Shown here one piece after another: positions 25,782-32,802 of a DNA stretch of 64,000 nucleotides. The stretch is from a bacterium (lineage in GTDB: Bacteria; Cyanobacteriota; Vampirovibrionia; Gastranaerophilales; JBAXKC01). The stretch's first letter is position 1, and the number at the start of each line of letters is the position of its first letter. A program made the position numbers and the translations under genes. The notes beneath the pieces are model-generated. The model saw only the letters and a list, made by a program, of their open reading frames with translations. It was not told where the DNA came from and did not search any database. Where the stretch lies: NCBI GenBank assembly GCA_037137535.1, contig JBAXKC010000008.1, forward strand, positions 26,976 through 90,975. The letters run 5' to 3'.

Positions 25782-26999
25782 TTATTGGCGGGGAATATCC
25801 TCGCCATTTTTATTTTTTAAAACTAAATTTAAAGCATTAAAAATATTTTCAATGGAAGAAGAAACATCAGTTTTACATGTTATGTTGTCTTTAACCATTT
25901 TAGCAAAAGAAGCTTTAGAAAATTCGCCATAACCTTTTATTTTCCACAATGAATTTAAAACATTTACCATACATGCTTCGCTTCTTAATTCATTAATTTC
26001 AACATTATTATTAACAATCGAAAAACTATTATTAATTGATTTTAAAATCAACTGATATGTCAAGATATCTTCAAATTCACCTTCATTGATAATATATACG
26101 CTATCTATTTCTCTTTTGATTTTTATAATTTCTTTTCCAATTGATTCAGCATCAAAATCAAATAATATAAAAATAGGAATACATAACTTATCTTTATAAT
26201 CTTTATACATTTTTAAAACTTGGTTCTTACCACCCGCAGAAACTAAATATATGCCATTTTTTGCAAAATCAAAGCCATGTACACAAGAAAACATAGGAAG
26301 AAGTTTTTCTTCCGTAATTCCTTCAACAATAAGAAATATTTCGGGGGAAACAGGAAAATTTAAACTTTTTCGTAATTCTAGCGAATAACAATAAACCTCA
26401 TTAAAATTTTGATTTAGTAAAAGATATTTCCAGATATAAAAAGCTCTTTTAACCCATAGCGACGTTTTGGTAAGCAAATCAGCTTTATCAAAATAGTCAA
26501 ATAAACTCTCAAAATTAATACTAAAAGTATTTGAATAGGAAATATAAATATTGTCATATCCAGAAAGTTCTGGATGTTTTTTAATTTTGGTTTTATAGCC
26601 TGCACTTGAAAACAGCTCATTTATTTCATAGACAGACAAGTTTTCAATATTAGAAAGTTTATCTAAAGTAATTCCAGGCTGTTGATTAAAGAAGAAATTT
26701 TCAGAATTAATTATTTCTTCAATAAGTTTAGTGGAAGAAAAAAACTTTGTATTTTCAAAAGAAAGATAATTAATTAATTTATTATCAAATTTATTTTCAA
26801 ATGTAGAATTTAATTCCTTAATAGAAGCATTAAATATTTCGGTAGCAATACATTCAAGTGAATATAAATCTAAGGACTTGATTGTATTTGAATTAAAACG
26901 AGGAATTACACAATTTTTTAGTATTACTTCTCTATAAATTTTTAATTTATTTAAAAAAGGATCTCTAAACCTAAGAAGTTTATCAGAATATTTAATCAA
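25782..26999 (-). CDS. Protein with a C-terminal OLD-type TOPRIM domain and no ATPase
   Basis: IVEGITEE, SAGGK, LFDFDAE (DxD) and GEFEDIL. The frame is open 39 codons further upstream. Confidence 0.65.
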   Translation of the reverse strand: MIKYSDKLLRFRDPFLNKLKIYREVILKNCVIPRFNSNTIKSLDLYSLECIATEIFNASIKELNSTFENKFDNKLINYLSFENTKFFSSTKLIEEIINSENFFFNQQPGITLDKLSNIENLSVYEINELFSSAGYKTKIKKHPELSGYDNIYISYSNTFSINFESLFDYFDKADLLTKTSLWVKRAFYIWKYLLLNQNFNEVYCYSLELRKSLNFPVSPEIFLIVEGITEEKLLPMFSCVHGFDFAKNGIYLVSAGGKNQVLKMYKDYKDKLCIPIFILFDFDAESIGKEIIKIKREIDSVYIINEGEFEDILTYQLILKSINNSFSIVNNNVEINELRSEACMVNVLNSLWKIKGYGEFSKASFAKMVKDNITCKTDVSSSIENIFNALNLVLKNKNGEDIPRQ

Positions 27000-29856: not shown

Positions 29857-30633
29857 ATGAAAAAGTCATGTTTTATCGAATGTTATTCAGGTGCTGCCGG
29901 AGATATGCTTATAGCTGGTTTTTTAGGTGCATTAAATGACAAGGATTATTTTATAAATGAATTAAGTAAACTTTCAATAAAAAATGAATTTGAAATTGAA
30001 ATCAAGCCAACCGTAAAAAAAGGGATTGCATCAACTAATTTTAACGTAATTATCAAAGAACATGATCATTGTCATTCTCATGAGCATAAACATCATCACC
30101 ATAGAGGTTTAAATGAAATAACTGAAATAATTAATAATTCAGATATTTCTACTGAAGCCAAAGAATTAGCTATAAAAATATTTATTAATCTTGGAGAAGC
30201 AGAAGCAAAAGTACATGGCACTACCTTAGATAAAGTTCATTTTCACGAAGTAGGAGCAATTGACTCAATTGTAGATATAGTAGGCTTTGCAATTCTATTT
30301 ACAAAATTAAAAATTGAAGAAGTGACAGTCTCTAATATAAATGTCGGAAGTGGTTTGATAAAGTGCGAACATGGTTTTATTCCTGTTCCTGCACCAGCAA
30401 CGCTAGAGCTTATAAAACTATTTAAAATGCCTGTATCTTCAATAGTTAATATTAAAGGTGAAACGCTAACACCAACAGGTGCCGCAATTTTGGGAACTAT
30501 CGCAACTGCATTTAATAACATTCCAAATTATGATGAAATTCAGACAATATCTTATGGTGCAGGAACTAAGGATTTTGAGGAAATTTCTAATACTCTAAGA
30601 GTTACGGTCGGAGTAGAAAAAAAAAACACTTAA
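29857..30633 (+). CDS. larC: Nickel-pincer cofactor nickel insertase, N-terminal part (LarC1)
   Basis: SGAAGDM, His-rich tract, HFHEVGAIDSIVDIVG, PVPAPAT and TPTGAAI. Confidence 0.92.
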   Translation: MKKSCFIECYSGAAGDMLIAGFLGALNDKDYFINELSKLSIKNEFEIEIKPTVKKGIASTNFNVIIKEHDHCHSHEHKHHHHRGLNEITEIINNSDISTEAKELAIKIFINLGEAEAKVHGTTLDKVHFHEVGAIDSIVDIVGFAILFTKLKIEEVTVSNINVGSGLIKCEHGFIPVPAPATLELIKLFKMPVSSIVNIKGETLTPTGAAILGTIATAFNNIPNYDEIQTISYGAGTKDFEEISNTLRVTVGVEKKNT

Positions 30634-31076
30634 TTAATTCAGTATTTGTTATTGAAACAAATTTAGACGATATTTCTTCTGAAATTATTCCTTATGTGAT
30701 AGAAAAATTAATGGAGAGTGGTGCGCTCGATGCGTTTATCACTCCTATTATTATGAAAAAAGGAAGACCTGCAAACAAATTAACTGTTTTATCCTATGAA
30801 AATACCTGCTCAATCTTAGAAGATATAATATTTAATGAAACAAAAACTCTTGGTCTAAGAAAATATAAAACTGATCGAATAATTCAAAATAGAAAAACAG
30901 AAATAATAAATATACCAGATCTTGGCGAAGTACGAATTAAATATAACCTCAATAAAAATGGAGAAATATTGTCTGCTAAACCAGAATATGAAGATTGCAA
31001 AAAATTAGCAGTTGAAACAAATCAACCCCTAATTAATATCATGACTAAAATCTCAAAAGTTATACAGAAAACATAA
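30624..31076 (+). CDS. larC: LarC C-terminal part (LarC2), joined to LarC1 by a -1 shift at the A10 run
   Basis: The -1 frame is open from 30591 and encodes ...VFVIETNLDDISSE...MKKGRP...TLGLR...KPEYEDC. The conserved ETNLDD motif lies upstream of the annotated GTG at 30696. Confidence 0.88.
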   Translation, partial: KHLINSVFVIETNLDDISSEIIPYVIEKLMESGALDAFITPIIMKKGRPANKLTVLSYENTCSILEDIIFNETKTLGLRKYKTDRIIQNRKTEIINIPDLGEVRIKYNLNKNGEILSAKPEYEDCKKLAVETNQPLINIMTKISKVIQKT

Positions 31077-31140: not shown

Positions 31141-31171
31141 AACGCTCATTACGTTATTGTAATTGAGCGTT
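31141..31171. terminator. Hairpin directly after the stop of the 95-aa gene
   Basis: AACGCTCATTAC...GTAATTGAGCGTT imperfect inverted repeat between convergent genes. Confidence 0.55.
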
Positions 31172-31458
31172 TATGCAAAGTACTTGAATGAAGACTCAAT
31201 ATTTTTATCTACAACCTTTTTGGCTGATTCCAATTCAGTTTCAATCATTTTATGTTGAGCTTCAATTTGCTTTTGTTGTAGCTCTAATTGTTTATTCAAT
31301 TCAAAAACTTGTTTCTGAATATTATCATCATTCATAAAATTCTGTGCTTGAGCACTCAAATTCATCTCTTTTTGACAAATTCTTTGCATTTGAAACTCTA
31401 AAGTACTCTTTTGATCCGTTAACAATAGTACACGGGCCTGACCTGCTACTAAACCCAT
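31171..31458 (-). CDS. Small coiled-coil protein (MGLxAxQARxLxL.../...KKVVDKNIESSFK type)
   Basis: 95-aa Q/E/K-rich heptad pattern with a GGGGG SD. It resembles, from memory only, a Melainabacteria hypothetical family with conserved termini. Confidence 0.75.
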   Translation of the reverse strand: MGLVAGQARVLLLTDQKSTLEFQMQRICQKEMNLSAQAQNFMNDDNIQKQVFELNKQLELQQKQIEAQHKMIETELESAKKVVDKNIESSFKYFA

Positions 31459-31465
31459 AATTAGT

Positions 31466-31908
31466 TCCCCCTAAGACTCCCACGTCTTTAAAAACTATAT
31501 TCCCCAAGATAATAATTATAATTTTTTATATATATTGATAAATACCCCAATCCCCTAGACTTCTTTAAGTCATTTCAGATAATATTGTTTGGATTAATTC
31601 CTCCTTTCATCAAAAGATCCAAACAAATTGTCATACCCCTTATCTCCTAAATATCCCCTAAATCCCAAATTCTTTAAATTTCTATAAAAAGTTAACCAAA
31701 TAAATGTCCATACCCCTAAACTTCCTTTTGTAAACCATCCCCTAATTTTTTATAACATATTAAATATTTTTATAAAAAAATGTTTCAAACAAATGGTCAT
31801 ACCCCAGAACCTGCCTTTTATCCCTCCTAACTCTTAAAATAATCTAAATTTAAATATCATTATAATTTTCTAATTCACTAAGGCTTTATTTTCTCTATCC
31901 TTCTTGTT
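31466..31908 (-). promoter_or_regulatory. GGA-rich periodic leader or candidate sRNA containing three SD-preceded mini-ORFs
   Basis: 16 GGA on the minus strand versus 1 on the plus strand. The degenerate repeat AGG..GGGGT ATG rmm ATT TrT TTG has ATGs at 31800, 31711 and 31634. Two hairpins display GGA in their loops. Confidence 0.6.
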
Positions 31909-32061
31909 TCTGATTTATACCTTACATATATATAAACAATATATCGGATTAAAAATTGCTAAACATGTATATAATCTCTCCATGTATTGTAATATTTCTT
32001 AATATTTGCAAAAAACAATAATTCAACTTAAAATGTTGTTGTAGCTAACTTTTGGGGATTT

Positions 32062-32802
32062 TTGAATATGACTGCAAAGAAAATACTAAGTACATTAATA
32101 TTACTTACGGCACTAACAACAGCCTCTCAATCCTATGCGGGTGATAATACATATATACAAAATATGTACAGCAAACCCTTAAATCTTATTGAAAGTAGCA
32201 TACAGACTCAAAGAATCCCAGCAGGTACTCTAATAAATTTAAGACTTGAAACTCCTATAAATTCCTTAACATCACGCTCTGGCAGCGAATTCAACGCAAC
32301 AGTTATAGAAAATGTAAAAATTGGAAAAAAAGTTGTATTACCTATTGGGTCGCTAGTAAGAGGAATTGTCTGTGTATCGAAAAAAAATACATTTGTATCT
32401 CAACCTGGTTATTTAAGTTTAACTTTTGATCATGTAGTTACACCATTAGGTAAACAACTACCAATAGTTGTAAGAACAAACAATTTAAATGCAAATAAAG
32501 ACGATATTATCAAAGGTGAAGGCGGCTATTTCAGAGCAGTAAATAATCATTTTGAAAAGAGCATTGATATCCTTGATAATACAACCGTGTGGGGGTATAA
32601 AAAAGGGAAATCATTTGCTAAAGGGATACCTGCTATAATAACTACTCCTATATGTGCTTTAGGTGGTTCTGTATATGGAAGTTCTTATTTTGCATACAAC
32701 ACGTTTATGTCTTTCTTTAGAAAAGGTGACAATGTAATATTGAATCCAGGTCAAAACATTCAAATAATCTCAAAAGAAGATATAGATTTAGTATTAAATT
32801 AG
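32062..32802 (+). CDS. Secreted beta-rich hypothetical protein (TrbI/VirB10-like C-domain)
   Basis: Signal peptide, IPAGTLINLRLETPINS, LPIGSLVRG and a C-terminal KGDNVILNPG. Confidence 0.6.
   Translation: MNMTAKKILSTLILLTALTTASQSYAGDNTYIQNMYSKPLNLIESSIQTQRIPAGTLINLRLETPINSLTSRSGSEFNATVIENVKIGKKVVLPIGSLVRGIVCVSKKNTFVSQPGYLSLTFDHVVTPLGKQLPIVVRTNNLNANKDDIIKGEGGYFRAVNNHFEKSIDILDNTTVWGYKKGKSFAKGIPAIITTPICALGGSVYGSSYFAYNTFMSFFRKGDNVILNPGQNIQIISKEDIDLVLN

Follow-up and report, generated by a model that had tools for sequence, protein, structure and literature searches.

A tandem array of small-RNA-complementary sites upstream of a Melainabacteria-restricted gene, a probable multi-site target or sponge

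Bacterial sponges and decoys of small RNAs (sRNAs), e.g., chbBC-ChiX, 3′ETS-leuZ and SroC, titrate an sRNA through complementarity to its seed, often with coupled degradation, and to our knowledge the known ones carry one or two short sites. Three further groups of described RNAs come close to the locus considered here. The CiaR-dependent small RNAs (csRNAs) of streptococci are sibling sRNAs with two stem-loops and unpaired anti-Shine-Dalgarno (anti-SD) and CAU elements, complementary to initiation regions (PMC3091779). Yfr1 of the oxygenic cyanobacteria, 54-69 nt long, combines a 5′ stem-loop, an unpaired ultraconserved C/U-rich motif with CUCCUC and a GC-rich terminator (PMC2190773). The sigma-28-dependent sRNAs FliX, MotR, UhpU and FlgO of Escherichia coli and CJnc170 of Campylobacter jejuni exert feedback on flagellar expression (PMC10578931, PMC11187230). 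Here we report a tandem array in the genome of an uncultured freshwater member of the Vampirovibrionia, a metagenome-assembled genome (MAG) of 2.95 Mb and 31% GC (source genome, G000), which is antisense to an sRNA encoded in nine copies in the same genome. The analysis was computational throughout and started from a stretch of 64,000 nt (JBAXKC010000008.1:26,976-90,975; hereafter the window), to whose positions all coordinates without a contig label refer. The array is located in a divergent intergenic region of 603 nt (31459-32061), between a 95-aa open reading frame (ORF) on the minus strand and a 246-aa ORF on the plus strand, in the putative 5′ leader of the former.

The original prediction, made from the letters of the window, had described three minus-strand mini-ORFs at this place and interpreted them as micropeptides, or as upstream ORFs or ribosome-loading decoys tuning the downstream gene. 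Its description of the sequence was reproduced, including identical translations:

31750..31800, minus strand: mini-ORF 1, translated as MTICLKHFFIKIFNML and a stop (16 aa)
31682..31711, minus strand: mini-ORF 2, translated as MDIYLVNFL and a stop (9 aa)
31575..31634, minus strand: mini-ORF 3, translated as MTICLDLLMKGGINPNNII and a stop (19 aa)

The SD-like tracts AAGGCAGG, AAGGAAG and AGGAG precede the ATG of units 1, 2 and 3, respectively, with a spacing of 9 nt in each, and GGGGT directly abuts the ATG in all three. Units 1 and 3 show the ACC/ACA difference in their Thr codon, and a degenerate fourth unit, ttGGGGTATTTATc, is present at 31548-31535 (minus strand) without an ATG. This array is far beyond chance. 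No same-strand G-tract cluster of the genome is denser than that of the leader, where nine tracts of four or more G (G4+) fall on a single strand in 335 nt; same-strand clusters of at least five such tracts exist genome-wide only in the leader and at one other place, on contig C66. At the latter (C66:18-370), a ~120-nt repeat with TTAGGGGTTATTTGAGG in every copy stands about three times in tandem at the end of the contig, following a small ribbon-helix-helix-like ORF; nhmmer found no relation to the sRNA.

A BLAST search of the intergenic region against its own assembly found 21 nt of unit 1 repeated exactly at eight other places. In a mismatch-tolerant genome scan, the 20-mer GGGGTATGACCATTTGTTTG had 14 matches at up to four mismatches: nine were exact (unit 1 and the eight outside copies), two had one mismatch (unit 3 and a ninth outside copy), one had three (unit 2), and the two with four were both unrelated. 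At up to three mismatches, the only matches outside the leader were thus the nine sRNA genes. All nine outside copies reside within one conserved element, read on the opposite strand, in the order CTAAAGTTTT (−35), N11, GCCGATAAAT (−10), ~8 nt and then a predicted transcript of ~74 nt, which starts with AGACCAAACAAATGGTC, continues with ATACCCCAACCTCCTCCCCAAAGTCTGGT and ends with a GC-rich hairpin and a T-run. The −35 and −10 elements, the transcribed part and the terminator are conserved among the nine copies, and the promoter spacer and the flanks differ:

C1:105682-105809: sRNA gene
C4:50420-50871: three sRNA genes in tandem, with a 161-nt period
C4:111054-111182: sRNA gene
C8:7862-7989: sRNA gene, ~19 kb before the start of the window
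C9:31663-31792: sRNA gene
C22:34953-35074: sRNA gene
C34:8723-8849: sRNA gene

The anatomy and conservation of these genes are strong, and their expression is predicted. Searched against Rfam at E ≤ 1, seven of the sRNA loci had no model match on the sRNA itself. The promoter fits the sigma-28/FliA consensus, TAAAGTTT-N11-GCCGATAA, with TAAA(G) at −35 and (G)CCGATA(A/T) at −10. A version of it precedes all nine genes, seven of them with the strict pattern; the other two deviate in the −10 element (GTCGATA at C4:50420-50549, GCCGATT at C8:7862-7989). A genome scan with the sigma-28 pattern gave 13 matches, compared to 5 for the reversed-pattern control, and the genome encodes a FliA-family sigma factor (247 bits vs a curated cut-off of 189.6).

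In the predicted fold, a long C-rich part of the sRNA stays unpaired between a 5′ hairpin of 5 bp and the terminator hairpin, and GGUCAUACCCCAACCUCCUCCCC is the sequence between these two hairpins. The unpaired stretch holds an anti-AUG (CAU), 7 nt, an anti-SD (CCUCCU) and CCCCAAAG, by which the predicted RNA is an anti-translation-initiation-region (anti-TIR) RNA. Because it carries CAU-7 nt-CCUCCU, its complement necessarily reads AGGAGG-N7-AUG, i.e., an SD-N9-ATG look-alike. The shared first five codons, the GGGGT and the constant SD-ATG spacing of the mini-ORFs are therefore accounted for by the units being antisense to the anti-AUG/anti-SD region of the sRNA.

To describe the predicted pairing of each unit with the sRNA, we calculated the net cofold energy (dimer minus monomers, in kcal/mol) and compared it with 100 shuffles per site:

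31786..31835, minus strand: unit 1, antisense to sRNA nt ~5-44, with a 20/20 core at 31786-31805 and the start of mini-ORF 1; net cofold −38.8, most extreme shuffle −18.8
31695..31745, minus strand: unit 2, with a 17/20 core at 31697-31716, AGGAAG, an upstream TTAGGGGAT and the start of mini-ORF 2; net cofold −26.2, most extreme shuffle −22.3
31615..31665, minus strand: unit 3, antisense to sRNA nt 1-43, with a 19/20 core at 31620-31639 and the start of mini-ORF 3; net cofold −39.0, most extreme shuffle −23.6
31542..31557, minus strand: unit 4, AGGGGATTGGGGTAT, antisense to the C-rich middle of the sRNA only and without ATG; net cofold −19.3, most extreme shuffle −11.1
31459..31474, minus strand: ribosome-binding region TTAGGGGGAACTAATT before the ATG of the 95-aa gene; net cofold at the true SD and start −15.4, within the shuffle range (mean −11.6, sd 3.8)

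For each of units 1-4 the predicted pairing was below the minimum of all 100 shuffles. The antisense match of the units extends to 30-44 nt of the 5′ part of the sRNA; apart from small insertions, units 1 and 3 follow the antisense of sRNA nt 1-44 colinearly, and the second C-tract of the sRNA, UCCCCAAA, has its complement in the TTAGGGGAT tracts located between units. In a genome-wide duplex scan of 50-nt windows on both strands, from which the antisense strands of the sRNA genes had been removed before ranking, unit 1 ranked first, as the best non-self site in the genome, and unit 3 ranked fourth. Searched against the leader, an nhmmer model of the nine genes matched through model positions 55-85 only, i.e., the transcribed 5′ part, at units 1-3 and weakly at unit 4; neither promoter nor terminator of the sRNA was matched at any leader unit. 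An origin of the array from decayed whole sRNA genes was rejected on this ground. The units also match the hairpin loop of the sRNA of this genome (AAACAAA) base for base, and as this loop is variable, the units appear to have been templated from the sRNA sequence rather than to have arisen by convergence.

Genome-wide, the partial nhmmer matches are the leader and a single site on C45. There, at C45:3560-3640, a second colinear antisense element reads CAGACTTTGGGGAG ... GGTATGAC ... TGTTTG (duplex −44.3 kcal/mol), between the stop codon of a short ORF and a terminator-like hairpin and with an inverted repeat on its flanks; it could be a sponge or target in a 3′ untranslated region (3′-UTR).

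The features around the array are the following:

31171..31458, minus strand: 95-aa ORF downstream of the array, from a multi-copy Melainabacteria-restricted family
31459..31915, minus strand: 5′ leader of ~457 nt, AU-rich, carrying the array and 16 GGA motifs
31920..31947, minus strand: promoter-like block ccgatatattgtttatatatatgtaagg, conserved by eye upstream of orthologues and with related copies elsewhere in the genome
32006..32034, plus strand: promoter-like TTGCAA-17-TAAAAT for the divergent gene
32062..32802, plus strand: divergent 246-aa ORF, secreted-looking, with a weak TrbI-like match

As the promoter-like site of the divergent gene is downstream of the array on the plus strand, the array is outside the leader of that gene and thus belongs to the transcript of the 95-aa gene, if to any. 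In the closest orthologous loci (L002 and L003, 55-56% protein identity, same divergent neighbor), a promoter-like block atatattgtttatatatataagag precedes the ATG by ~80 nt, compared to ~460 nt in the source genome, and a TAGGGGG-type SD is present as in the source genome, without any array. The intergenic region measures 603 nt here vs roughly 220-320 nt in four syntenic loci, an excess of about the size of the array. Judging from these comparisons, the array is a lineage-specific expansion of the 5′ leader. No terminator-like site was found in the leader by scan. Its fold was no better than that of shuffles (z +0.39), for which a structured leader or riboswitch was rejected, and Rfam gave zero matches in the window at gathering score and, at E ≤ 1, two sub-threshold, chance-level matches in the leader only. 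DNA contigs from the same study confirm the assembly. One 161-nt contig of a metatranscriptomic library from the same sample covers 31502-31662 (depth 2.1, unstranded, one mismatch), weak support for leader transcription; none covers the 95-aa coding sequence or the neighbors, which is not evidence of absence. A different kind of leader element was seen in three other orthologous loci (L004, L005 and L006 in G003, G018 and G011), from a different family of the order and without a G-tract array: a conserved block …ggtattagtggacaatgtataagtaacaggcatttattttaaaaggagcgttaaac…, ~350-460 nt upstream of the ORF and after the same promoter-like tatatatataacagag.

How do the sRNA and the array compare with the systems named at the outset? 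The csRNAs likewise comprise multiple similar siblings with anti-SD and anti-AUG elements unpaired between two stem-loops, but have a CiaR promoter and belong to another phylum; their Rfam models give no match to our sRNA (E ≤ 1), and a multi-site decoy array in an mRNA leader is not met in the portion of the csRNA literature drawn on (PMC3091779). Yfr1, from a sister lineage, is similar in architecture, size class (54-69 vs ~74 nt) and lineage-wide conservation. However, its motif ACUCCUCACAC differs from the core ACCUCCUCCCCAAGUCU of our sRNA, there is no Yfr1 match in Rfam at E ≤ 1, and our sRNA is multi-copy with a sigma-28-type promoter. Homology to Yfr1 is possible. With the sigma-28-dependent sRNAs, our sRNA would share transcription with the late flagellar regulon. 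Those of E. coli and Campylobacter are, however, unrelated in sequence, the ones of E. coli are UTR-derived, unlike our nine stand-alone genes, and the present type of sRNA also occurs in f3, the largest family of the order, where none of ten sampled genomes had a FlgK match (G002 and G028 among these ten). The array itself shares with bacterial sponges an mRNA segment complementary to an sRNA seed, but comprises four tandem sites, two of them near-full-length antisense (40-44 nt), a layout closer to that of eukaryotic multi-site miRNA sponges. With the CsrB/RsmZ sponges it has in common that G-rich motifs recur many times in a transcript that is unstructured or regulatory, and CsrA is encoded in the genome; unlike in those, the repeats are RNA complements of 30-44 nt instead of short GGA loops, and the leader is part of an mRNA. 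A full-text literature search for Melainabacteria together with small RNA returned no report of sRNA regulation, judged by titles and the beginnings of abstracts.

We consider it probable that units 1-4 are repeated sRNA-antisense sites that make up a multi-site target or sponge in the expanded leader of the 95-aa gene. This reading builds on the complementarity and the predicted energies, on the leader expansion and on how the sRNA genes are built and conserved. We infer from these that sRNA and leader are transcribed and pair in vivo; the effect could go in either direction, and the array may be mainly a target or mainly a sponge. If the leader were co-transcribed with the 95-aa gene, four high-affinity sites would be available on the mRNA, two of which approach full length (40-44 nt). 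With an active sigma-28 regulon, sRNAs would bind to this leader, up to four per leader, and the near-perfect duplexes of 40-44 bp would probably be cut by RNase III, whose gene is present in the genome. The fate of the mRNA would then be coupled to the sRNA pool, and sRNAs would be titrated from other targets in the manner of a sponge or decoy. The mRNA might be destabilized, it might be processed to a shorter, differently translated form, or mutual consumption might buffer the sRNA pool. Probably, an antisense copy of the transcribed 5′ part of the sRNA was captured and duplicated in tandem to give the array; this is suggested by the match of the array to the loop of the source genome, which differs among the aligned relatives.

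More tentatively, the array may represent a bacterial multi-site "competing endogenous RNA", in which four captured antisense copies buffer the pool of a nine-gene sigma-28 sRNA and tie a lineage-specific protein to the motility regulon, with a hitherto undescribed and apparently order-wide sRNA of non-photosynthetic cyanobacteria, which may correspond to Yfr1. Should the array function as a multi-site target or sponge, its layout would be unusual for bacteria, and it would show how decoys can originate, by capture of antisense sRNA fragments. The findings also point to an sRNA family apparently spanning the order, with a recognizable promoter class and an anti-ribosome-binding-site seed. Arrays of SD-ATG look-alike mini-ORFs can mirror anti-TIR sRNAs and should be compared with the rest of the genome before micropeptides are called.

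Several observations weigh against a target or sponge array. Transcription of sRNA and leader is deduced, and the sole RNA contig, shallow and unstranded, could stem from DNA carry-over. Pairing of the sRNA at the SD and start of the 95-aa gene itself was no better than that of shuffles. Direct translational repression of this gene by the sRNA is thus unsupported, and effects at the level of the leader, or a sponge, are favored over occlusion of the SD. The source genome is the sole member of its family in our collection, and the absence of the array from the examined relatives would agree with a recent neutral insertion, too. At 31512-31517 (minus strand) there is a perfect TATAAT, not called by the promoter scan, which could as a proximal promoter leave units 1-4 outside the mRNA. 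Finally, flgK was considered as a conserved natural target: its start region in the source genome, AGAGGTTAAGGGTATGACATC (C15:18452-18490), resembles the antisense sRNA (−29.8 kcal/mol). This was rejected, as 24 relatives lack the GGGGUAUGAC context and have only G-rich SDs such as TTGGGGAG.

Four other explanations of the array were weighed. An antisense fragment of the sRNA might have recombined into the leader and been tandemly duplicated, leaving a decaying neutral relic whose pairing is only incidental. That the array is confined to one of the examined genomes and that the units are graded in quality (20/20, 19/20, 17/20, partial), like a decaying series, would agree with this, as would the 20/20 match to the loop of this very genome, which speaks for templating instead of convergence. 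Such a relic nevertheless appears unlikely to us: in every unit the homology is limited to the target-binding transcribed part, as expected under selection for pairing, the element on C45 is a second, independent instance of colinear antisense, and duplexes of −26 to −39 kcal/mol with the sRNA of nine genes would be consequential anyway, were the leader transcribed. It is less plausible still that the leader mainly binds CsrA through its GGA motifs, as a CsrA-repressed mRNA or CsrB-like sponge within the FliW-CsrA flagellar circuit. The 16 GGA in 457 nt are exceptional (at least 16 in only 31 of 58,242 genome windows, the top 0.05%), csrA and fliW are present and adjacent, and there are paralogues of the 95-aa gene with sigma-28-type promoters, as the CsrA-controlled flagellin gene of Bacillus likewise has one. 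Yet most GGA motifs are parts of the G-tracts complementary to the sRNA, no set of GGA hairpin loops is predicted (consistent with the fold z-score), and CsrA binding leaves the 20-nt sRNA identity over the GGA-free part UAUGACCAUUUGUUUG (16 nt) unexplained. CsrA binding and sRNA sites may, in addition, be compatible.

The interpretation in the original prediction, i.e., that the mini-ORFs are translated and serve as micropeptides, upstream ORFs or ribosome-loading decoys for the 95-aa gene, was found very unlikely, despite the SD-like purine tract 9 nt upstream of each ATG, the unstructured leader and a genome in which GGGG-type 5-mers are among the most enriched upstream of long ORFs (GGGGT 37 vs 1 in the background, AGGGG 48 vs 2). 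The similarity of the peptides stops at codon 5, exactly where the complementarity to the sRNA stops, and beyond it the peptides, which are 16, 9 and 19 aa long in total, are unrelated. The opening ATG-ACC-ATT-TGT-TTG is likewise found antisense to the sRNA genes, and in unit 4 the sRNA-complementary G-tracts persist without an ATG, an outcome the prediction had named as speaking for a by-product of an RNA or DNA motif. It had also proposed a comparison with syntenic regions; this revealed neither conservation of the mini-ORFs nor the array in any relative examined. Micropeptides are thus unlikely on the sequence evidence. What stands of the tuning idea is a non-random array in the leader of the downstream gene that is plausibly regulatory; the decoys would be for an sRNA, not for ribosomes. 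Most improbable of all, to our mind, is that the plus strand holds degenerate sibling sRNA genes that are themselves transcribed. Read on that strand, the units do correspond to the 5′ part of the sRNA, but none has a sigma-28-type promoter or a terminator, and promoter-like matches on the plus strand are at chance (6 found vs 6.7 expected).

Beyond the source genome, BLAST searches with promoter plus sRNA were positive for 138 of the 151 genomes sampled from the order (Gastranaerophilales/Vampirovibrionia) and for 127 of the 135 high-quality ones, although in f3 many of the matches span a 25-nt core only. A related promoter was recognizable at the f3 copies in four of five genomes inspected, including G002 and G028. 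Related loci belong to Vampirovibrionales, Gastranaerophilales and Cyanobacteriota MAGs. Altogether, 26 copies from 20 genomes retain the TAAAG...CCGATA promoter, a near-invariant core CCUCCUCCCCAAGUCU-GUAGCCG and the terminator, which in four sequences shows one base pair with a compensatory change. Checked sequence by sequence, 27 of 31 copies are predicted to have a 5′ hairpin adjoining the core, with varying stems (GACC/GGTC, GGTC/GACC, AGCCT/AGGCT, ATGACC/GGTCAT, GACCC/GGGTC, ATGAAAAAC/GTTTTTCAT) and a loop that differs among the aligned copies; the consensus fold yielded the terminator only, the variable 5′ hairpin having been misaligned by MAFFT. The relatives carry one to seven sRNA matches, and the inspected ones are sibling genes with different 5′ parts. 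The sRNA family thus appears real, old and seemingly order-wide, as far as sequence conservation can tell.

Scans for close relatives gave three distant loci from metagenomes and seven distant loci from genomes, and the divergent 246-aa neighbor is syntenic in 5 of 11 related loci. In a search for decoy arrays elsewhere, the 11-mer GGGGTATGACC occurred at 29 places in 40 relatives, 13 of which are sRNA genes; 15 others were inspected and are isolated, without a second copy or anti-SD complement nearby, with one place left uninspected. The sRNA of G005, searched by BLAST against five relatives, gave 18 matches; among eight inspected, six were sense-oriented sibling genes and two were short and chance-like. 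Other candidate targets of the sRNA in the source genome with SD-overlapping complementarity are C1:112551 and C27:7526, besides flgK.

The 95-aa protein belongs to a family seen in Melainabacteria only, with up to 56 matches in one genome and members between 95 and more than 700 aa long. Conservation is seen at the N-terminus (MGLxASQxRLLxLTxRKxDLE) and at the C-terminus (...VKKVIDKNIexxFKxF), with a variable middle, a layout that looks flagellin-like and structural; canonical flagellins are also present in the source genome. The protein had no assignment in Pfam, NCBIfam or the protein atlas, where a Flagellin_C-bearing cluster reached a score of 0.76, below the lead threshold; another 95-aa protein, P0002, is 68% identical to it. 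Paralogues in the source genome are located at C9:24182, C15:29324/45254/46115/46884 and C62:8229, and three paralogues have a sigma-28-type motif upstream. Such a motif was also found within 220 nt upstream of one of the six flagellin genes. csrA and fliW are adjacent at C1:47184-47758 (minus strand), and this member of the Vampirovibrionia appears to possess the FliW-CsrA module for the flagellin checkpoint. The Pfam model of Hfq had no match in the source genome, but the control missed Synechococcus, too, so this result is uninformative.

Elsewhere in the window, two consecutive plus-strand ORFs (29857-30633 and 30696-31076), with a gap of 62 nt between them and GTG as start codon of the second, look by eye like the N-terminal and the C-terminal part of LarC (nickel-pincer cofactor insertase) and could be a split or frameshifted gene. 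A 405-aa ORF at 25782-26999 (minus strand) contains an OLD-like TOPRIM domain (E 1.2e-10) and possibly encodes a defence-type nuclease.

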